NCBI GenBank assembly: GCA_016188355.1
Contig: JACPHY010000011.1
Location: 23,219-87,218 of the forward strand
Source of the DNA: Candidatus Uhrbacteria bacterium
GTDB taxonomy: Bacteria; Patescibacteriota; Patescibacteriia; JACPHY01
DNA: 64,000 nucleotides
Direction: 5' to 3'
In this document: one piece after another, positions 1 through 60,003 of the stretch
How positions within the stretch are numbered: position 1 is the first letter of the stretch
Layout of the letters: the number at the start of each line of letters is the position of its first letter
Program-made: the position numbers and the translations under genes
Notes under the pieces: model-generated
Databases searched by the model: none
What the model was told of the DNA's origin: nothing
The model's input: the letters and a program-made list of their open reading frames with translations, nothing else

Positions 1-501
1 CGATGTTGAATGTGTATCCGCAGGCGTGGCCCTTTTCGGATGCGGTGCAGGGATCGAGTCCAATGCGGGTCTCATTGAGCATGCCCTTCCATTGGATCAC
101 GTTGCCTGGTACCCAATCCGTGCAACTCCAGGAGCCGTCCTCGGTGACGTTTCCACAGAATTGCGATCGGCCCGCGTCTATTGGACCAGTGTACGTGATG
201 TCAAAGTCCCACAGCTCGGCTGGGATTTCCACGCTGCATCCCATGCTGCTCGCACCGAGTGCAATGTGCATCGCGAGCAGTACGTGCGATGACCTCATGT
301 TCCGCTCCTCTCCTCATTGCGCATGAGCCATACCCATGCGCTCGTGGGGTTCGAAGGCTCGCCCACGGAATAGCGCAGGTTTCGCGCGGCGATGTGGTCC
401 GCGTTCCTGCGTGTCAGTGTGGACAGTATGCCACCATCTGGCGTTGCGGTCGAGTGGAAAAAGCAACCCCCTCGCACCCGAAGGTGAGAGGGGGGTAGTG
501 A

Positions 502-7870: not shown

Positions 7871-8446
7871 GCCCTATTTCGGAGGAGCTCTCTGCGTGAG
7901 GAGATCGGAATTGAGCGAATCCCCGGGGGGTCCCAGTTCGGAGGGAAGGGCCAATGTATGGGGCTTTGCTTTGTTGAGCAAATGTTACTCAGTAAACAGA
8001 AAATGTGATGCTAGGCCATTGACTTCTCGGGCGTTCTGTGGTACATTTCTACGTTCCCCGCACGACTGTTCTCAGATAAAGCACGAACCGACGGAACGGG
8101 GAAACGGAGCTCCGGTGTATCCGGATGCCACAATGATTGGTCTCCTGAGCGGGCGCTGCCATCGGAATGCAGCGCATGCCAGATGGGTGAGGTCCTTCGC
8201 TTGCTCAGGGTGACGCATTGGAAAAAGAAAATGAAATACCTCTTCAGGAAGCTGCGCTCGAGAGCACTCGCTCCGTAAGGAGTGAGGGGGAAGTGAACTC
8301 GAGAGGACAGGGCCCTGCGCTCACGACAAGCATGGGGTTTCGTGCTCGGTCGACTTGGCTGCTCCGGCAGCTCGGTCAGGCCCATCACTAAATCTCTTGA
8401 GCGCAGCTTTCGGGAGAGGTTTTTGTATAGTTTTGTACCTTTACTG

Positions 8447-14340: not shown

Positions 14341-14366
14341 TGTGGCGATCAGCCGTTGTCCCAAAC

Positions 14367-14398
14367 AAATGAGATTCCTCGCGCGAGGAATCTCATTT
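14367..14398 (-). terminator. terminator hairpin for the minus-strand tRNA-Glu + trailer transcript
   Basis: Perfect 13-bp stem aaatgagattcctc-gcgc-gaggaatctcattt followed on the minus strand by TTTGTTTGGG. Confidence 0.6.
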
Positions 14399-14399
14399 G

Positions 14400-14587
14400 G
14401 TATTGCTTGTGGACTCCATCCGAACCCGAGCGCAGCGACCGGAGTATGTGGGGAAGAAGGACTTGCCCCGCGAAGCTCCGCAAGGAGCGAAGTGGGGGCT
14501 TTGCCCGACCCCACATACGGAGGGAGCAAGCGACTTGGTTGGAGGGAAGGGGGTACGGGAGGGAAACCGGGAGGTTTCCCCACGATC
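14400..14587 (-). ncRNA. conserved tRNA 3'-trailer element (copy 1 of 3), co-oriented with tRNA-Glu
   Basis: Shares boxes GTCGCTTGCTCCCTCCGTATGTGGGGTCGGGCAAAGCCC, CCTCACATACTCCGGTCGCTGCGCTCGG and CCCCCACTTCGCTCCTTGCGGAGCTTCGCGGGGCAAG with elements after tRNA-Lys and tRNA-Arg. Internal 10-bp hairpin gtatgtgggg / ccccacatac. Confidence 0.5.
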
Positions 14588-14665
14588 TGGTAGCCCCAAC
14601 GGGATTTGAACCCGTGTCCCCGCCTTGAAGGGGCGGTGTCCTAGACCAGGCTAGACGATGGGGCC
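14588..14665 (-). tRNA. tRNA-Glu (anticodon TTC), CCA encoded
   Basis: The reverse complement GGCCCCATCGTCTAGCCTGGTCTAGGACACCGCCCCTTCAAGGCGGGGACACGGGTTCAAATCCCGTTGGGGCTACCA folds as a cloverleaf with a 7-bp acceptor stem, CCGCC/GGCGG anticodon stem, loop CCTTCAA and a GGTTCAAATCC T-arm. Close to E. coli tRNA-Glu. Confidence 0.85.
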
Positions 14666-14777
14666 AAGACAAACATGGGGGAGAACCCTTGATGCGCAGA
14701 AGGGTTCTCCCCCATGGGCCCCCTCTCCATTGGAGCTTCGGTTCGCGGAGTGAATCCGTCGAACCTCAGCGGTCATT

Positions 14778-16735: not shown

Positions 16736-17947
16736 ATGATGATGTGTATGTCCATTACGTCCACTGGTACGCGAAGTTGGGTAGAGGTATCTGCGCGCGC
16801 GTTGCGGCATAATGTGGCTGCGCTACGAGCCATGATCGGCAGCGAGCGCGTACTTTGTGTGGTGGTGAAGGCGAATGCGTATGGGCACGGGATGATCGAG
16901 GTGGCGCGTGTGATCAGCGAGGAGCGGGCGTTTTCTGGTCGGGGACCTGTCCCGCGAAGCGTCGATGCCGATCGACGCGAAGTGGGATGGTTCGGGGTGG
17001 ATAGTCTTCCCGAGGCGCTCGCGATTCGCGCGGTGGGCATTGAGACACCGATGATCATTTTAGGATATGTGCCGATCACGGATGCGCGCGCTGCGGTGCG
17101 TGCGCGGGTGCGGGTTACCGTTGCGGAACCGGCAACGATGCGCGCGTTGTCCGCGGTGGCGGGTCGGCGTGTAGTGCGGGTGCATGTGAAACTCGAGACG
17201 GGAACGCAACGTCAGGGTGTTGCTCCGGAGGCGCTGCCGGCATTTCTGCGGATCGTGCGTCGACTGCCCGGCATATGGGTAGAGGGCGTATCGACGCATC
17301 TCGCCGATGTCGAGGATACCGGTCCGGATGGATTCGCTGCCGTGCAGCTTGCGGCGTTTGATCGTGCGGCCGCGATCGCGGAGCAGATGTGCGGGCGTCG
17401 ATTGCTGCGACATGCGTCTGCGACTGCGGCAACGATGTTACTTGCGGAGGGACGGCATGATTTCGTGCGACCGGGCATCGGTTGTTATGGTCTTTGGCCA
17501 TCTGATCGGACACGTGCCGTGATGGAGCGCCGCGATCCTTCGGCGCGTCTGTTCCCGGTACTCAAATGGAAAACGATGGTGGGTCCTCTGCATGAGGTGC
17601 CCACGGGGGCACCGATCGGCTACGGATGCACGGAACGTGTATCACGACGCACGCGGATCGCGGTACTTCCCGTGGGTTATTGGGATGGGTATGATCGGAA
17701 GCTCTCGAGTACCGGGGAAGTCCTCATCCGTGGTCGTCGGTGCAAGGTGCTCGGCCGCATTTGCATGAATATGTGCATGGTTGATGTGACCGACGTGCCG
17801 CGCGTGCGACTGGAGGATGAGGTGGTGCTCCTTGGGAAGCAGGGTCGTGCGGAGGTCACCGCGGAGGAGCTGGCGGGAAAGGTTGGCACGATCAATTACG
17901 AGGTGGTGACTCGGATCAATCCGTTGTTGCCGCGGCGAGTGGTATGA
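16736..17947 (+). CDS. alr: alanine racemase
   Basis: PLP-binding motif VVVKANAYGHG near the N-terminus, a C-terminal beta-domain, and length about 400 aa. Confidence 0.9.
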   Translation: MMMCMSITSTGTRSWVEVSARALRHNVAALRAMIGSERVLCVVVKANAYGHGMIEVARVISEERAFSGRGPVPRSVDADRREVGWFGVDSLPEALAIRAVGIETPMIILGYVPITDARAAVRARVRVTVAEPATMRALSAVAGRRVVRVHVKLETGTQRQGVAPEALPAFLRIVRRLPGIWVEGVSTHLADVEDTGPDGFAAVQLAAFDRAAAIAEQMCGRRLLRHASATAATMLLAEGRHDFVRPGIGCYGLWPSDRTRAVMERRDPSARLFPVLKWKTMVGPLHEVPTGAPIGYGCTERVSRRTRIAVLPVGYWDGYDRKLSSTGEVLIRGRRCKVLGRICMNMCMVDVTDVPRVRLEDEVVLLGKQGRAEVTAEELAGKVGTINYEVVTRINPLLPRRVV

Positions 17948-28003: not shown

Positions 28004-28615
28004 ATGCTCATCGCATATCACGGAGATGCGTGTATTCGGTTGACCGGGAAGCACGATGCGGGGGAATTTGCGGTGCTCCTCGATCCGTATGACGTGAAGG
28101 TGACTGGATTGAAACCGATTCGTCCCTCCGCGGTGCATCTCGTGTGCGCAACGGCGGGTACACTGCCCGAATTCGGGGAGGGTCCGTTTGTGGTGCGCGG
28201 GCCGGGGGAATATGAGGTACATGGGGTATCGGTGACCGGATTCCCGGCTGGCGCGACCACGATCTATCGGATCGCAGCGGAAGGACTTTCGATTGGCCAT
28301 CTCGGCAACTGCGCGGTGCCATTGGACGCCGCGATGATTGAGCGGCTCGGGGAAGTGGATGTGCTCACGGTTCCGGTGGGCGGGAACGGCGTCCTGAATG
28401 CGAAGCAGGCATCGGCAGTGATCGAGCAGGTGGAGCCGCGGCTCGTCATTCCGATCCAATATCGCGCTCCCGGGCTGTCATTGCCGTACGAGAGTATTGA
28501 CGCGTTTTGCAAGGAGATGGGGTGCTCGGCAAAATCTCCAGAGGAAAAGCTCCGCGTGGTGAAGAAAGAGCTCCCGACGGACGAGATGTGGGTTCGGGTG
28601 CTCGCGGTTGATTGA
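28004..28615 (+). CDS. MBL-fold metallo-hydrolase (UPF0173-like)
   Basis: About 200 aa. The pattern MLIAYHGDACIRL...DVLTVPVGGN is typical of the short MBL-fold hydrolase family. Confidence 0.6.
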   Translation: MLIAYHGDACIRLTGKHDAGEFAVLLDPYDVKVTGLKPIRPSAVHLVCATAGTLPEFGEGPFVVRGPGEYEVHGVSVTGFPAGATTIYRIAAEGLSIGHLGNCAVPLDAAMIERLGEVDVLTVPVGGNGVLNAKQASAVIEQVEPRLVIPIQYRAPGLSLPYESIDAFCKEMGCSAKSPEEKLRVVKKELPTDEMWVRVLAVD

Positions 28616-36261: not shown

Positions 36262-36951
36262 ATGACCGATCTCAGTGGATTGGAGCAGCAGTTGGGTGCG
36301 ACGTTTGAAAATCGCGACTTACTCCTGCAGGCGCTCACGCATCGCTCATATCTCAATGAGCATCCGAATTTTCCCTTGGGGCACAATGAGCGTCTCGAGT
36401 TTCTCGGCGACGCGGTGATCGAGTTGGTCGTCACGGAATATCTCTACCGCAATTACGACAACCCCGAAGGGGAGCTGACGAATTGGCGCGCGAGTCTCGT
36501 GAATGCGAAGATGCTTTCGGAAGTTGCTCGGGAATTGGGCGTCGAGCCGTATCTCCTCCTCTCCCGAGGCGAGGCAAAGGAAACGGGAAAGGCACGGCAG
36601 TACATTCTTGCGAATGCATGCGAGTCGGTCGTCGGTGCACTCTACCTCGATCAGGGCATGCGCAAGGCGAAAGCTTTCTTGAGCCGCGTGCTCTTGCCGC
36701 GATTGCCGCACATTCTCGCGAATCACCTGTACATCGATGCAAAGTCACGGTTTCAGGAGATTGCGCAGGAACGATTGGGCATCACGCCGAACTACAAGGT
36801 GCTCGAGGAGGTTGGTCCGGATCATGCAAAGCGATTCACGGTCGGCATCTTCCTGGGCCGCGATCTCGTGGCGAGCGGCGGGGGATCATCCAAGCAGGAG
36901 GCGCAGATGGATGCCGCAGAAAATGCACTCAAGGCGAAGGGGTGGGTGTAG
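36262..36951 (+). CDS. rnc: ribonuclease III
   Basis: RNase III signature ERLEFLGDAVIELVVTEYLY, catalytic E/D residues, and a C-terminal dsRBD (KQEAQMDAAENALKA). Confidence 0.95.
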   Translation: MTDLSGLEQQLGATFENRDLLLQALTHRSYLNEHPNFPLGHNERLEFLGDAVIELVVTEYLYRNYDNPEGELTNWRASLVNAKMLSEVARELGVEPYLLLSRGEAKETGKARQYILANACESVVGALYLDQGMRKAKAFLSRVLLPRLPHILANHLYIDAKSRFQEIAQERLGITPNYKVLEEVGPDHAKRFTVGIFLGRDLVASGGGSSKQEAQMDAAENALKAKGWV

Positions 36952-36974: not shown

Positions 36975-37046
36975 GCGCCCGTGGTGAAATGGATATCACG
37001 GCAGCCTTCGGAGCTGCTCTTGGGGGTTCGAATCCCTCCGGGCGCA
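36975..37046 (+). tRNA. tRNA-Arg (anticodon TCG), no encoded CCA
   Basis: GCGCCCGTGGTGAAATGGATATCACGGCAGCCTTCGGAGCTGCTCTTGGGGGTTCGAATCCCTCCGGGCGCA folds as a cloverleaf with acceptor GCGCCCG/CGGGCGC, anticodon stem GCAGC/GCTGC, loop CTTCGGA and T-loop TTCGAAT. Confidence 0.8.
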
Positions 37047-37335
37047 AATACAGCATAGGCAAACCTCCCCCACTCCGCTCCTGAGCGGAGCTTCGCGGGG
37101 CAAGCCGGTTTTCCTATGGACCCTTTCCCTTCTGCCGGTCGAAACGACCATGCGGTCGCTTGCCTGCGGGCGCATTCGGGGTCGGCATGAAAGCTGGTGT
37201 CCGGCACCATCCCGAGTCCGCGAGGGACCTCACACCACACATGGGGCATGTGAGATCTCTCGTCGCCCAGCGCTCCTCGAGACGACACAAGGGTCGGCCT
37301 GTCTTCTTTCCCGAACGCGTCCTCGGCGGCACTCG
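37047..37335 (+). ncRNA. conserved tRNA 3'-trailer element (copy 2 of 3), after tRNA-Arg
   Basis: Contains box CCCCCACTCCGCTCCTGAGCGGAGCTTCGCGGGGCAAG (shared with the Glu copy), CGGTCGAAACGACCATGCGGTCGCTTGC (shared with the Lys copy), and GGGGTCGGCATGAAAGC plus CCTCACA...CGTCGCCCAGCGCTCC related to the other copies. Confidence 0.45.
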
Positions 37336-37385
37336 GGTTGGATGGGTACAGTGAGAAGCGCAGAAATTTTCGTACTGAAACGGGC

Positions 37386-38447: not shown

Positions 38448-38523
38448 GGGTCGCTAGCTCAACTGGTAGAGCAAATCCCTCTTAAGGATAAGGTTCCGGG
38501 TTCGAGCCCCGGGCGACCCACCA
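38448..38523 (+). tRNA. tRNA-Lys (anticodon CTT), CCA encoded
   Basis: GGGTCGCTAGCTCAACTGGTAGAGCAAATCCCTCTTAAGGATAAGGTTCCGGGTTCGAGCCCCGGGCGACCCACCA is close to bacterial tRNA-Lys. Anticodon loop CTCTTAA. Confidence 0.85.
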
Positions 38524-38700
38524 GAATCACGGGACGAACCTCCCGGTTCGCCTGTGGGCCCACTCCCTCCTTTCGGTCGAATCAGCCATTCGGTCGCTTG
38601 CTCCCTCCGTATGTGGGGTCGGGCAAAGCCCTTCTTCCTCACATACTCCGGTCGCTGCGCTCGGATCAGGATGGAGTCCGCGGGGCGCACCAAAAAATGA
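38524..38700 (+). ncRNA. conserved tRNA 3'-trailer element (copy 3 of 3), after tRNA-Lys
   Basis: CGGTCGAATCAGCCATTCGGTCGCTTGCTCCCTCCGTATGTGGGGTCGGGCAAAGCCCTTCTTCCTCACATACTCCGGTCGCTGCGCTCGG. Hairpin gtatgtgggg/cctcacatac. Near-identical boxes to the Glu copy in the same orientation relative to the tRNA. Confidence 0.5.
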
Positions 38701-38711
38701 ACTTTGCATAC

Positions 38712-38745
38712 AAAACACCCGGGCATTGCCCGGGTGTTTTGTATG
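38712..38745. terminator. bidirectional terminator hairpin between the tRNA-Lys unit and hup
   Basis: aaaacacccgggc-attg-cccgggtgtttt perfect stem with T-runs on both strands. Confidence 0.7.
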
Positions 38746-56651: not shown

Positions 56652-57710
56652 ATGTCGATGTTGGTGCTGGATCCGAAGATCACCCGACTTCCTGCTGTGA
56701 CGCAGACGAATGCATGGTATTCCGTCGTATGGTCCCCATCTGGCGCGTACGTGGCTGGGGTACAGGATATGAAGATCATTTCGTGTTGGCGTGGTGATGG
56801 GTCGCTGCTTTGGACGCAGGACTACTCGCGTGAGAGTGTACAGGATTGTGTATTCGCAGGCGACGACACGCTCTATGTGCGGTCCATCGGTTACTTCAGG
56901 GATGGCACACGTCGCGTGCGTATTCGGAGGTGCATGGTGCCGGATCGGCGTGGCCGCAATGCGATGGTGTGTTCCCGTCCGGTGTCTCGGCTGGGGTCCA
57001 TGGCGGCTACTAGGGATGGCGCCCTCCTTTATGCGGAGTGGTTGGGCAGTGGTCTTTCATGGCATCGGTACTCGCAATCATGCTCCCATCCGCACCAGTC
57101 GGTGATACGGGAGATTGCCTCCTGTGCGGATACGTTGCACTTCTCACGTGATGGGCGTTGGTTGTGGGAGGTGCAGCAGTCGAGCATCCAGGTAACGTGC
57201 ATGGTGACCAATGATACGGCGTGCGTCGCAAATTGTGGTGCTTCCATATTGGCGGTAGACGTTGCAGACGAGAGTCACCGTATTGCGGTGGTGCACCGAA
57301 ATGGACGTATTGCGGTCTTTGCGCATGAGCGAGATCCCCGTAACGGTGTGCTTCGAGTGGTGCGCGACCGTCCGGATCGGCGTTGGTGTCGGTCGATGCG
57401 GCATGCGGCAGTGATTTGGGGACCCGGTGATCATCTCTTCTTGTTGATTGGGCAAGAGCATCGCCTGTTGCTCGTTGACGCGGATGCCCCGGACGAACTT
57501 ACGGTCATGGCGGAAATACCGCAGGTGCGGCAGGTGGCGACGATCTCCCCTGATCCGCACGCGCGTCGGGTGTTCGTGCTCGGCTCGCTCTCCACACCGT
57601 CCGCATCGCGTCGCCGCGAATACGACTATGGTTCCGCGCTCCTCGATTTTGGTTCCCCCTACCTCGGCCTCGTTGCGCCCGTGCACTGGGCGGATGCATC
57701 GTTTGGGTAG
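56652..57710 (+). CDS. WD40-like beta-propeller paralog 5; C-terminus ...LDFGSPYLGLVAPVHWADASFG
   Basis: YSVVWSPSGAYVAG..., ISPDPHARRVFVLG. Confidence 0.7.
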   Translation: MSMLVLDPKITRLPAVTQTNAWYSVVWSPSGAYVAGVQDMKIISCWRGDGSLLWTQDYSRESVQDCVFAGDDTLYVRSIGYFRDGTRRVRIRRCMVPDRRGRNAMVCSRPVSRLGSMAATRDGALLYAEWLGSGLSWHRYSQSCSHPHQSVIREIASCADTLHFSRDGRWLWEVQQSSIQVTCMVTNDTACVANCGASILAVDVADESHRIAVVHRNGRIAVFAHERDPRNGVLRVVRDRPDRRWCRSMRHAAVIWGPGDHLFLLIGQEHRLLLVDADAPDELTVMAEIPQVRQVATISPDPHARRVFVLGSLSTPSASRRREYDYGSALLDFGSPYLGLVAPVHWADASFG

Positions 57711-57714
57711 CGCG

Positions 57715-57816
57715 ATTTGGTCCCATCCCCGGATGGGACTTCCCCCGCGGTGATCTTGCGGAAGATCGTTGCGGGGGAGGAATGTGGTATTGGTTCTTTC
57801 CCAAAGGAGGCGTGTC
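57715..57816 (+). promoter_or_regulatory. conserved leader L6 upstream of paralog 6
   Basis: TTGGTCCCATCCCCGGATGGGACTTCCCCCGCGGTGATCTTGCGGAAGATCGTTGCGGGGGAGGAATG...GGTTCTTTCCCAAAGGAGG..ATG. A-T to C-G covariation in the second hairpin. Confidence 0.6.
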
Positions 57817-58818
57817 ATGTCGAATGGATCGGCGGAACGTGGAAATTTGATTTCGGATCCGCGAGTCGTGCTCCTGTCCGGACCGGATCAGCGGGCGGAT
57901 AGTTGTGCGTGGTCTCCCTCGGGAAATCTCGGGGCGACCGTGCACGGGGGTACGTGTGTGTTGTGGGATCTCCATACGGGAGCAGCGACGGTGCGCTGTG
58001 CGACCGGTCGGCTGGTGCGCGACATTGCGTTTGATGGATCGGGTAGACGGATCATGGTCCTGGATGATCACAGCGTTTCTGCGTGGAGCGGTGAACGGGG
58101 AAACTACGAGGGCGTTGTGGTGCTCGCGAATGGATACCAGATGCTCTCCATTGGTGGCTATTATTTGGCTGCGTGGCAACCGGATCGCTGCCTGCTCCAG
58201 CCAATGCGAAGGGACGTGCTCGATCCCATCGAATTTCAGGAGCGGTGGAAGGCGGTAGTGCTCTCCGCGGATGGGTTGCTGACCTGGTTTCTTTGGTCGG
58301 ATGGTGTGGTGGCTGCGCATACGGGAGCGGGATCGGCACATCGTATCGCTGAATTTCCATTGGTCTGTGAGGGCCGTGATCGATCCATTGTCTGTGCGCT
58401 ACAGGGTCGGAGGGCGGTGGTGTGCTGTGGGGGGCATGTGCACGTGTTCGATTGCGATGCGCCGGAGCGTCAACGCGAGCGTATGTGGGCATTGACGGAT
58501 CCCATTCATGCAGCGACGTGGCTTTGGGGAGGACGAGCCCTACTGCTGGCGCATGGTGCATCGCGCGATGCGAGTCGGCTGTGCGGTATCGACGTGGCAA
58601 CTGGTTTTCCGTTTTGGCGCTCGTCGGCCCATACCTTGCAGCAGGTGACGGCATTTGCGTCCGCACCGGATGGCCATCGCGTGCTCTTGAATGCAGCATT
58701 GGTGACGCCGTTCTCGGCATCGGATGCGGAACGTTTTGGCGCGACGGTACTCGACTTCGGTGACCCGCCCTCGTCTTTGGGTGGTTCACTGCATTGGTCG
58801 GACGCGTCGTTTGGGTGA
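57817..58818 (+). CDS. WD40-like beta-propeller paralog 6; C-terminus ...LDFGDPPSSLGGSLHWSDASFG
   Basis: CAWSPSGNLGATVHGGTCVLWDLHTG..., ASAPDGHRVLLNAA. Confidence 0.7.
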   Translation: MSNGSAERGNLISDPRVVLLSGPDQRADSCAWSPSGNLGATVHGGTCVLWDLHTGAATVRCATGRLVRDIAFDGSGRRIMVLDDHSVSAWSGERGNYEGVVVLANGYQMLSIGGYYLAAWQPDRCLLQPMRRDVLDPIEFQERWKAVVLSADGLLTWFLWSDGVVAAHTGAGSAHRIAEFPLVCEGRDRSIVCALQGRRAVVCCGGHVHVFDCDAPERQRERMWALTDPIHAATWLWGGRALLLAHGASRDASRLCGIDVATGFPFWRSSAHTLQQVTAFASAPDGHRVLLNAALVTPFSASDAERFGATVLDFGDPPSSLGGSLHWSDASFG

Positions 58819-58866
58819 TGGAGTGCGAACATGGGATAGGGCGGCGACCGCGTACCAGGTCGACGC

Positions 58867-60003
58867 ATGGGAGGAATGATGGCATTGCTCGATTCCGCGG
58901 TGTCATTATTGACGCCGGATCTCTTTGCAAAAGCACGCGCCATATTGCCGCCGATTACCCTACCGCGGCCACGGCGTCGTTTGCTGGGCGGACTTCCCGA
59001 TCGACCGACTGCGCTGGTTTGGGCACCAGACGGATCACATCTTGCGATGATCTGCCACCCCGCGGAGACCGTGGTTTGGCATGCGACGCGTGATGCGTGC
59101 GATTATTTTCCGCCGGCCATGGCATTTGCGTTTACGGGAGGGGATGCACAAACGTTGTTGTGGGATGATGGGCAGCACGTGCAGCATTCGCGAATGCTCT
59201 TGACGGTGTCGATCGCGGAGGGTGCGTCGACGTCGTGCAAGCGGTGGTCGCGATTATTGCCCATGGATGCGGATCGCTGTGTGTTTGTCGAGGGATTCGA
59301 ACCGGATCGATTTCCTAAATCGGCTCGATGGACGGCGCGTTGCTTGGCGAGTGGTGCGTCCTGGCCCTTTGCGGGTGGGCCGTGTTCCGGGCCCGTCGAA
59401 GTCCTGCGCGACCATAATCTCCTGGCAGTGGCAGATGCGGCGTTATTGCAGTTTTGGGAGGTGCCGTCGCGCGGCGTGGAGCTGCCGAAGACGCTGTTGC
59501 GTCAGCAGGTTGCCATGCCGTGCACCGATGTCATTCGCGCGTTGGCGACCTACCAACACTCCTGCGTGGTGGGATGCGTGCGCGGGCATTGCTACGAATA
59601 CGATTGCCGTGCACAGGCGTGGACGCGAGGGGTCGAATGTCCCGGTAAGGATGCGATCACCGCGCTCGCGGTTTCGTCGGACGGGCGGGTACTGTTCGTG
59701 AGTACGAGCAATGCCGCATCGATGATTGGTATGGACTGGCAGCGCGGCGAGGTGTTGCGGAACATCGGCCCATTCTATCGTCGCCGGTCCCCGCGTCTGC
59801 TCGCGGCGAGCCCCGATTGCCGAGTGATCGCGTGCGATGAATATTTGCCGCCGACCGATGATCGGTGCTGGAGCGATCGGGTGCTCGACTGGTCGGATCG
59901 CATGGGTATCCGTTCTGGCGGACAGCTGCGCCTCGTCACGTTGCTCGATTTCGGCACACCGCATTTCGGGGTGACCCATTGGGCGGATGCGTCATTCGGG
60001 TGA
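58867..60003 (+). CDS. WD40-like beta-propeller paralog 7; C-terminus ...LDFGTPHFGVTHWADASFG
   Basis: No leader and a 48-nt gap after paralog 6. LVWAPDGSHLAMICHPAETVVWH..., AVSSDGRVLFVSTS. The start is ambiguous among three clustered ATGs. Confidence 0.65.
   Translation: MGGMMALLDSAVSLLTPDLFAKARAILPPITLPRPRRRLLGGLPDRPTALVWAPDGSHLAMICHPAETVVWHATRDACDYFPPAMAFAFTGGDAQTLLWDDGQHVQHSRMLLTVSIAEGASTSCKRWSRLLPMDADRCVFVEGFEPDRFPKSARWTARCLASGASWPFAGGPCSGPVEVLRDHNLLAVADAALLQFWEVPSRGVELPKTLLRQQVAMPCTDVIRALATYQHSCVVGCVRGHCYEYDCRAQAWTRGVECPGKDAITALAVSSDGRVLFVSTSNAASMIGMDWQRGEVLRNIGPFYRRRSPRLLAASPDCRVIACDEYLPPTDDRCWSDRVLDWSDRMGIRSGGQLRLVTLLDFGTPHFGVTHWADASFG

Follow-up and report, generated by a model that had tools for sequence, protein, structure and literature searches.

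Why should one and the same sequence stand behind three unrelated tRNA genes of a bacterium? The question is raised by a 64-kb stretch of DNA from Candidatus Uhrbacteria, a member of the Patescibacteria or Candidate Phyla Radiation (CPR), which was analysed at its full length (G+C content 60%) and is referred to here as the window. Genomes of this radiation are about 1 Mb in size, extremely gene-dense and usually described as repeat-poor. Each tRNA gene of the window is nevertheless followed by a copy of a repeat unit whose ancestral form would have measured approximately 165 nt. We read this unit, as the best explanation, as a palindromic repeat of the miniature inverted-repeat transposable element (MITE), REPIN or BIME kind that is young, non-autonomous and restricted to one lineage. 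We favour, with modest confidence, the view that it is selfish or neutral, copied between tRNA 3′ flanks, transcribed as a trailer and discarded during tRNA maturation.

A repeat unit behind each tRNA gene

ARAGORN and Rfam identify exactly three tRNA genes in the window: tRNA-Glu(ttc) at 14588–14665 on the minus strand, and tRNA-Arg(tcg) and tRNA-Lys(ctt) at 36975–37046 and 38448–38523, both on the plus strand. The CCA end is encoded in the Glu and Lys genes and not in the Arg gene. All three are followed on their 3′ side by a copy of the repeat in the orientation of the tRNA, the unit beginning 7–10 nt past the last tRNA base, and low-stringency BLAST with all three copies (word size 7, E ≤ 1) found no further copy in the 64 kb. 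By our own arithmetic, which assumes some 60 intergenic junctions, each open to insertion in two orientations, three random insertions would each land 3′ of a different tRNA gene and co-oriented with it with a probability of about 4 × 10⁻⁶. The regions upstream of the three tRNA units are unrelated, with no common promoter or leader. The original prediction, made from the letters of the window, of a co-oriented trailer element after every tRNA and of a genuine repeat family tied to tRNA 3′ ends was therefore correct within the window; the boxes it quoted lie at the positions it gave, and its coordinates for the copies stand in general, except that the Arg copy ends at about 37357 and not at 37335.

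The unit consists of a hairpin (H1), a C/U-rich linker and a long, imperfectly paired rod with a 10-bp stem at its tip. Its simplest, insertion-free version is the Lys copy (38524–38687, plus strand), in which a 4-nt spacer precedes H1 (38528–38556; 12 bp with a bulge, loop TCCC). The Lys rod (38575–38679) is built from a 5′ arm, GGTCGAATCAGCCATTCGGTCGCTTGCTCCCTCC (38575–38608), an apex stem, GTATGTGGGG (38609–38618) paired with CCTCACATAC (38637–38646) around GGGCAAAGCCC, and a 3′ arm, TCCGGTCGCTGCGCTCGGATCAGGATGGAGTCC (38647–38679), after which come a short linker and a strong terminator. The Glu copy (14403–14587, minus strand) extends from the end of the tRNA gene as far as the linker that precedes its terminator. 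Its H1 lies at 14561–14581 (GGGGAAACC-TCCC-GGTTTCCC) and its C/U-rich linker at 14541–14560, which in a single-sequence fold pairs with GGATGGAG of the 3′ arm. The rod apex (14444–14518) has the stem GTATGTGGGG (14509–14518) and CCCCACATAC (14444–14453) enclosing both GGGCAAAGCCC and a nested 37-nt mini-palindrome (14461–14497, minus strand) that scores 61 bits with R1, a covariance model built from copies of this module; the 3′ arm, TCCGGTCGCTGCGCTCGGGTTCGGATGGAGTCC, occupies 14411–14443. The Glu copy lacks approximately 17 nt between two GGTCG repeats.

The most diverged version is the Arg copy (37047–37357, plus strand), which carries two nested insertions. One is again the 37-nt mini-palindrome (37068–37104, plus strand; R1 59.8 bits), here in the loop of H1, whose arms it splits (37054–37069 and 37107–37118). 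The other is an extra segment of about 112 nt in the rod apex (37187–37298), bounded by an 8-nt direct repeat, GGGTCGGC, at 37179–37186 and 37291–37298. The apex itself (37168–37322) is closed by the stem GGGCGCATTCGGGG (37168–37181) and CCCGAACGCGTCC (37310–37322), and is flanked by a 5′ arm beginning GGTCGAAACGACCATGCGGTCGCTTGC (37137–37167, identified by repeat search and alignment of the copies) and a 3′ arm ending CACTCGGGTTGGATGGGTAC (37323–37349). Module order is thus common to all three copies, and their differences are discrete insertions and deletions. What had been described as a mosaic element is, to judge by the alignments, one ancestral unit modified by secondary events: the shared unit stands, while the mosaic appearance comes from later indels and from one box that belongs to an unrelated mini-palindrome.

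A repeat search of the window recovered a 39-nt segment at 100% identity and a 75-nt segment at 81% between the Glu and Lys copies, and a 59-nt segment at 78% between the Arg and Lys copies. With insertions removed, pairwise identity is 75% for Glu/Lys, 65% for Lys/Arg and 58% for Glu/Arg. The 10-bp hairpin GTATGTGGGG/CC(C/T)CACATAC reported for the Glu and Lys copies is real. Because 39 nt are identical between two copies whose tRNAs are themselves unrelated, copying between these loci appears to have been recent. A protein-coding reading of the unit was rejected, as indels of 37 nt and 17 nt separate the copies and they have no open reading frame (ORF) in common. Inspection by eye also spoke against reading GGGTTCGGATGG of the 3′ arm as a remnant of a tRNA or T-arm, since it is not kept in the Lys copy and has no T-stem.

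The source is a metagenome-assembled genome (MAG), in which repeats can be mis-joined, and chance similarity, an assembly artefact or a chimera had to be considered. This explanation is effectively refuted. Independent Logan assemblies from three runs agree with the Lys copy at every base as far as the k-mer break, stretches of the Arg copy are found with 100% identity in other Logan contigs, a second MAG has diverged copies at the same loci, and the chance expectation for the boxes is approximately 0.02.

Folding and transcription of the trailers

The Lys and Glu trailers are predicted to fold at −109 kcal/mol (z = −6.2) and −102 kcal/mol (z = −5.8), respectively, each forming H1 followed by a long irregular rod. 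For the element by itself the energies of the sense and antisense strands are −71.7 and −68.1 kcal/mol (Lys) and −77.1 and −88.6 kcal/mol (Glu); both strands fold about equally, and whole-element energy was discarded as a guide to the strand. Covariation across the copies, which had been proposed as a check on the element, was analysed with RNAalifold on five sequences (the three trimmed window copies and two partial copies from a sister genome). The consensus fold retains the two main stems, H1 and the apex stem, with double compensatory changes at 7 of 24 pairs; the lower rod is absent from it. Between the Glu/Lys version and the Arg version of the apex stem, for example, U-A becomes C-G, G-C becomes U-A and a second U-A becomes C-G. 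There are six G.U cells on the tRNA-sense strand against two A.C cells (equivalent to G.U on the opposite strand), a balance that leans slightly towards an RNA of the sense strand. With 3–5 sequences, this structural covariation is supportive and not conclusive.

The strong intrinsic terminators predicted behind the Glu and Lys copies were also found. That of the Glu unit (14366–14399, minus strand) is a perfect 15-bp stem followed by TTTGTTT; that of the Lys unit (38707–38745) is bidirectional, an 18-bp palindrome with core CACCCGGGC/GCCCGGGTG followed by TTTTGTAT, and is common to the convergent HU gene. The Arg copy has no terminator and continues into the next ORF. Since no promoter-like site was seen between tRNA and element, the element is probably co-transcribed as a tRNA trailer, as had been proposed; the proposal is plausible, two of the three copies being followed by a terminator. 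No Rfam family matched the element: over the whole window only tRNA passes the gathering thresholds, and in the trailers at E ≤ 10 no family comes near its threshold, the best being ohsC (31.6 against 50 bits), on a terminator. The families so covered include transfer-messenger RNA, RNase P RNA, 6S RNA, signal recognition particle (SRP) RNA, ribozymes and small RNAs. A perfect 17-bp hairpin, CATGGGGGAGAACCCTT..AAGGGTTCTCCCCCATG, lies on the other side of tRNA-Glu, directly upstream of the gene and before the divergent tsaD (14674–14716).

These features invite a functional interpretation, in which hairpin and rod form a selected RNA module co-transcribed with the tRNAs. It might serve as an entry site for RNase III or RNase Y that parts the tRNA from the terminator, as a barrier to 3′-exonucleases, or as a small RNA whose C/U-rich strands (the UCCC loop and CCCUUCCCUCC) pair with G-rich Shine–Dalgarno regions. 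Such a role would bear on tRNA maturation in the RNase-poor CPR bacteria. It would agree with the strongly non-random folding (z about −6), with pairing in H1 and the apex stem kept through seven double changes and G.U cells favouring the sense strand, and with the unit's own terminator behind the Glu and Lys copies; against it, the lower rod drops out of the consensus fold, the two strands fold about equally, the covariation statistics are weak, and insertions of 37 nt and about 112 nt and a 17-nt deletion are tolerated. We regard a selected trailer as the main alternative, though a less probable one, and the distribution of the unit has more to say on it.

Distribution and spread of the unit

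A sister genome, the MAG GCA_016206015.1, the nearest one available, has an RNase III 98% identical to that of the window, and its shared loci show 82–90% nucleotide identity. Its tRNA-Lys and tRNA-Arg loci lie on one contig (L122) and tRNA-Glu on another (L132). The sister tRNA-Lys is followed by H1 and the C/U-rich linker, at which point the contig ends within the element; at tRNA-Glu the contig ends within the element from the other side, leaving the apex, 3′ arm, linker and terminator visible. The 37-nt module is absent from this orthologous Glu copy, and its presence in the window is on that ground a true insertion/deletion polymorphism. Behind the sister tRNA-Arg there is no element at all: homology stops at the last tRNA base (window position 37046) and resumes at the start codon of a NUDIX gene, an unrelated 371-amino-acid (aa) ORF standing in place of the element and a 159-aa ORF. 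The possibility that the 159-aa ORF of the window is a truncated homologue of the 371-aa ORF was dismissed, as the two show no similarity. The unit is therefore carried by five of the six tRNA loci examined in the two genomes, always co-oriented. The CCA end of tRNA-Lys is encoded in the window (38521–38523) and not in the sister (L122, 8675), and that of tRNA-Arg in neither; the two genomes cannot be aligned across the junction of tRNA-Lys and element. A search of the TsaD cluster for the 5′ junction of the sister tRNA-Glu element returned same-strain members only.

Further out, five Uhrbacteria contigs at 77–79% RNase III identity (L123–L127) have unrelated trailers after tRNA-Arg and tRNA-Lys. 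A core pattern fitting all three copies had no match in JGI metagenome contigs or in IMG/VR, the 3′-arm pattern and the 20-mer GCGGAGCTTCGCGGGGCAAG none in viral contigs, and the Lys copy no BLAST match in phage and plasmid collections. A loose pattern, GTCGCTTGCN{12,16}GGGGTCGG, run over genome contigs gave at least 120 chance matches, none of them element-like by BLAST, and so provides no evidence on GTDB species representatives. Among the genomes examined, the unit thus appears confined to this genome and one sister.

This distribution is hard to reconcile with a conserved non-coding RNA gene, one of the roles first suggested for the element: the unit is missing after the sister tRNA-Arg and in the more distant relatives, the larger insertions are tolerated, and the sister Lys copy is nearer to the window Arg copy than to its own counterpart. 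The absences at the sister tRNA-Arg and at the tRNA-Arg and tRNA-Lys loci of the other Uhrbacteria, and a similarity pattern that does not follow orthology, count likewise against a functional trailer, which can in turn point to the five of six loci with a co-oriented unit starting 7–10 nt after the tRNA, to the retention of the unit behind the sister's tRNA-Glu and tRNA-Lys, and to a Glu element 93% conserved where the flanking genes are 82% conserved.

Several features taken together are hallmarks of a repeat family and are what incline us to a selfish or neutral repeat: restriction to one lineage, near-identical segments beside unrelated genes, presence and absence between sisters, non-orthologous similarity, nested insertions and compensated hairpins, all of them read from sequence comparison. 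The sister Lys fragment is 72% identical to the window Arg copy and 65.5% to the window Lys copy, a second reason to suppose recent copying between loci. The unit takes up the space that separates a tRNA 3′ end from the next feature, and behind tRNA-Glu and tRNA-Lys it stops just short of the terminator. Its spread from one tRNA locus to another would have taken place at the DNA level, by transposition driven in trans or by gene conversion. The copies were then remodelled independently by nested insertions and indels. Transcribed within the tRNA precursor, the unit would be cut away during 3′ maturation, the rod offering a long-duplex substrate of the RNase III type (rnc lies at 36262–36951). 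The tRNA trailer might in this way provide a harmless refuge for an element in a very gene-dense genome. A selfish repeat and a functional trailer are not mutually exclusive.

Each copy in the window is bounded at its distal end by a repeat of the last 5 nt of its tRNA: TACCA for tRNA-Glu (14398–14402, minus strand), GCGCA for tRNA-Arg (37358–37362, plus strand) and CACCA for tRNA-Lys (38688–38692, plus strand). These repeats end 23–24 nt past a conserved GGATGG, and the chance of such a match is 5 × 10⁻⁴ to 1.5 × 10⁻³ per position. They look like a putative target-site duplication, and together with the preference for tRNA ends they hint at targeted, staggered-cut insertion. If the duplication is real, tRNA and terminator would have been adjacent in the ancestral state; the genomes compared yielded no empty site for the large unit. 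On the boldest version of events, the unit homes to tRNA ends generically with a 5-bp duplication, comes to lie in every case between tRNA and terminator, and exports a trailer RNA that has been co-opted, either as an RNase III site or as a C-rich anti-Shine–Dalgarno small RNA. We consider this unlikely. Were generic targeting of tRNA ends true, it would represent a small, non-autonomous bacterial element that recognizes tRNA genes as a class.

The copies, each bounded by such a 5-nt repeat, could be read instead as traces left by site-specific integration into the 3′ ends of tRNA genes, in the form of att-like ends or mini-islands. The break in sister homology, which coincides with the final base of tRNA-Arg and beyond which the two genomes carry different cargo, would suit such an event, as would a contig of one relative (L123, 8608–8720) in which CCCCGGGCGACCCA stands some 75 nt beyond tRNA-Lys(ctt) and repeats the 3′ end of another tRNA-Lys allele (that of the window), a duplication that looks like a recombination scar at a tRNA 3′ end. 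Integrases, however, are specific to one tRNA and duplicate 15–50 nt, and here the far-boundary repeat is 5 nt, below the 15-nt criterion for a tRNA island. There is no integrase among the approximately 50 ORFs of the window searched with Pfam, the same 165-nt unit stands behind three unrelated tRNAs, and at tRNA-Glu and tRNA-Lys the copy is free of cargo and separates the gene from the terminator that belongs to it. Integration scars are accordingly a very unlikely explanation.

Several observations weigh against a selfish or neutral repeat. The same Pfam-searched ORFs include neither a transposase or integrase nor a RAYT-like gene. The unit lacks clear terminal inverted repeats, and its termini are not conserved between copies (5′ ends GATCGTG, GAATCAC and AATACAGCAT; 3′ ends ..CACAAGCAA, ..GCGGGGCG and ..CAGTGAGAA), which makes a classical DDE-type MITE unlikely. 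The sister Glu copy reads CAACA in place of TACCA at the position of the putative duplication. Over the 88 nt that can be aligned, the Glu copy is 93% identical to its sister counterpart while the adjacent 5.3 kb, mostly coding, is 82% identical, a degree of conservation beyond that expected for a neutral passenger. The start at 7–10 nt, the co-orientation and the excess of G.U over A.C cells would fit a function at the RNA level equally well. Finally, assemblies do break inside the repeat, with both sister contigs ending there and same-strain Logan contigs, short and 100% identical to the window, ending inside repeats (at the 39-nt repeat), yet such breaks can be explained by the known copies alone, of which the window has three and the sister two or more. 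A selfish repeat would nonetheless help to explain the recurrent contig breaks beside tRNAs in MAGs of this kind.

Among the known systems closest to the unit are the REP, REPIN and BIME elements of Proteobacteria, of which REPINs are mobilized by RAYT transposases (PMC3116915, PMC3337134). These too are short, imperfectly palindromic sequences, able to join into longer hairpins and mosaic arrays; they are extragenic, lie at the 3′ ends of transcription units near terminators, are multi-copy, lineage-specific and non-autonomous, and are conserved above neutral DNA. The large unit has the corresponding hallmark of inverted arms forming a long imperfect hairpin (z about −6), and it is present three times here and at least twice in the sister. 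On the other hand, the Pfam search of the window revealed no RAYT or other HUH gene, and by eye no conserved 5′ GTAG adjoins the arms of the large unit (GTAG adjoins some, not all, of the metagenomic mini-palindromes described below, namely those on L133, L136 and L137). REPINs, moreover, neither depend on tRNA 3′ ends nor keep a fixed orientation relative to the gene upstream, and the host here is a Patescibacterium.

Correia elements of Neisseria and ERIC/IRU elements of enterobacteria resemble the unit as MITE-like palindromes of 100–170 nt that form a long hairpin when co-transcribed with a neighbour. Correia transcripts are cleaved by RNase III, the same processing that is proposed for this trailer. 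Correia elements differ in having 26-bp terminal inverted repeats, a TA target duplication and an IHF site; the large unit has no clear terminal inverted repeats, has 5-nt flanks that equal the tRNA end and occurs only at tRNA flanks. Functional 3′ external transcribed spacers (3′ETS) of tRNAs exist, an example being 3′ETS-leuZ of E. coli. The trailer is similarly placed, co-transcribed 3′ of a tRNA and releasable by tRNA processing, but the same module stands behind several unrelated tRNAs and is missing at orthologous loci of relatives, and a stable product and its targets would be putative. Mobile elements that home to tRNA genes include tyrosine-integrase islands, type V-K CRISPR-associated transposons and the eukaryotic Ty3 and TRE elements, and Tn7-like elements make 5-bp target duplications. 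Such homing elements share with the unit an orientation-specific insertion at or after tRNA genes that leaves the tRNA intact. They differ from it in that no recombinase, transposase or CRISPR component is found nearby, the unit is only about 165 nt long and it occupies three different tRNAs; nor does it have the TGT...ACA ends or repeated TnsB sites of Tn7. Palindromic intergenic repeats as such are known, and it is the tRNA 3′ niche in a CPR genome that is unusual.

A separate mini-palindrome and other repeats

The 37-nt module nested in the Glu and Arg copies has the form CCCCACTNCGCTCC-loop-GGAGCTTCGCGGGGCAAG, or CCCCACT(T/C)CGCTCC..GGAGCTTCGCGGGGCAAG. Its 20-mer GCGGAGCTTCGCGGGGCAAG is found in the window only in these two copies (chance expectation 0.02), and the box CCCCCACT..GCGGAGCTTCGCGGGGCAAG had been taken for a part of the tRNA-linked element. 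That assignment fails: the box is a mini-palindrome that also occurs away from tRNA genes and within coding sequence. Scanning metagenome contigs with the 20-mer returned 11 loci, nine of them with the whole module. These nine have variable, compensating apical stems and lie in unrelated contexts at 45–56% G+C, with no Rfam family at any of the mini-palindrome loci. The module lies upstream of an HPF-like gene on L133, L134 and L139, abuts the 5′ end of tRNA-Ile in antisense on L135 and L143, follows a synthetase-like gene on L137, and was also found whole on the metagenomic contigs L136 and L142; on L140 (6311–6349) a 39-nt version sits in frame in the ORF of phosphoglycerate kinase (PGK), which remains intact (R1 59 bits). 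The contexts therefore include 5′ untranslated regions, the side of a tRNA and the interior of protein genes.

A third copy in the window, 42 nt long (16946–16987, minus strand; R1 50 bits), lies in frame and antisense within alr (16736–17947, plus strand). It belongs to the CCCAC-TTCGC...GCTTCG-CGGG family and falls within an 18-aa insertion, RAFSGRGPVPRSVDADRRE, relative to PDB 4y2w. A filled and an empty site can be compared in a gene of the metallo-β-lactamase (MBL) fold. The L123 gene has a 30-nt mini-palindrome at 370–399 (minus strand; R1 33 bits) that adds the 10 residues GPAPRSLGEV, and its window orthologue shows the empty site GGG|AAC (28382–28387, plus strand; junction 28384/28385). 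The pair reads GGG|AAC in the window and GGG|CCTGCCCCTCGAAGCCTTGGCGAAGTGGGG|CAC in L123, a difference of exactly 30 nt or 10 codons, with GGG both before the insertion and at its end. The antisense insertions in alr and in the L123 gene are read in one and the same frame, as ..PRS..EVG. Among Patescibacteria PGK orthologues, a single site may hold the module, hold a different perfect 14-bp palindrome or be empty. In this loop, after the SHRGRP motif, L140 has the GCTTCGCGGGGCAAG mini-palindrome (39 nt), L144 a shorter variant and L145 the different palindrome, TATCGGCTTATTCG/CGAATAAGCCGATA; the loop appears from these alignments to be a hotspot for in-frame palindromic insertions. In an IleRS-like gene (L124 11880–11975, and also L125 and L126), a composite palindrome, CCCTGAGC..GTCGAAGGG / CCCTTCGAC..GCGGAGC..GCTCAGGG, gives a weak R1 score of 19.9 bits and may be a related in-gene insertion.

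On the sequences collected, the mini-palindrome of 30–43 nt is an independent element that is widespread in Patescibacteria. In 5 of the 10 copies here the insertion lies 5′ of CC or CCC. The orientation of the module relative to transcription is mixed, and therefore it behaves as a selfish palindrome at the DNA level, by analogy with the Rickettsia palindromic elements (RPE). Those were reportedly described by Ogata et al. in 2000 as selfish palindromes found both between genes and in frame within them. They are the closest match for the module, sharing intergenic and in-frame locations, a short peptide loop, an intact reading frame and filled and empty orthologues; they differ in length (about 100–150 nt, three to four times that of the module), in unrelated sequence and in phylum, and the module also nests in another repeat. 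In the searchable literature we found no description of RPE-like elements or of tRNA-linked MITEs in the CPR, and in-frame RPE-like palindromes of 30–43 nt in Patescibacteria genes are a by-product of interest in itself. Two palindromic layers, one at tRNA 3′ flanks and one of mini-palindromes within genes, would change the picture of CPR genomes as repeat-poor and would show selfish DNA persisting even in streamlined symbiont genomes. It would be tolerated in the trailers of tRNAs and in loops at the surface of enzymes (PGK, Alr and the MBL-fold protein). Should generic homing of the large unit be true as well, unit and mini-palindrome together would amount to a previously undescribed selfish palindromic layer in ultra-small CPR genomes.

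The surrounding genes of the window are of the housekeeping type (SMC, FtsH, GyrA, IF-2, RNase Y, TsaD/TsaE, Alr, S1 and others), and three further regions carry repeats or folds of their own. At 8230–8430 (plus strand), the ends of an intergenic stretch of about 190 nt pair over 31 nt and are followed by a T-run, with no Rfam match; positions 8280–8425 are 98.6% identical to the sister, where flanks are at about 82%, and the sister contig L132 starts within this stretch, which is a candidate structured non-coding RNA or another repeat. Between 31500 and 32700 lie dense pyrimidine-rich direct repeats with a 23-nt period (..TTCGCCATCCTGTCTTTC..) and several inverted repeats of 31–37 nt with CCTGAGCGAAGCGAAGGATCTCAC, and the left end of the sister contig L122 terminates in the same repeat. 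The region 50300–60000 is an array of tandem paralogous genes of about 350–380 aa, some matching WD40/β-propeller families; segments at their C termini and between the genes are conserved, and a hairpin, TGTCCCATCCCCGGATGGGAC, recurs.

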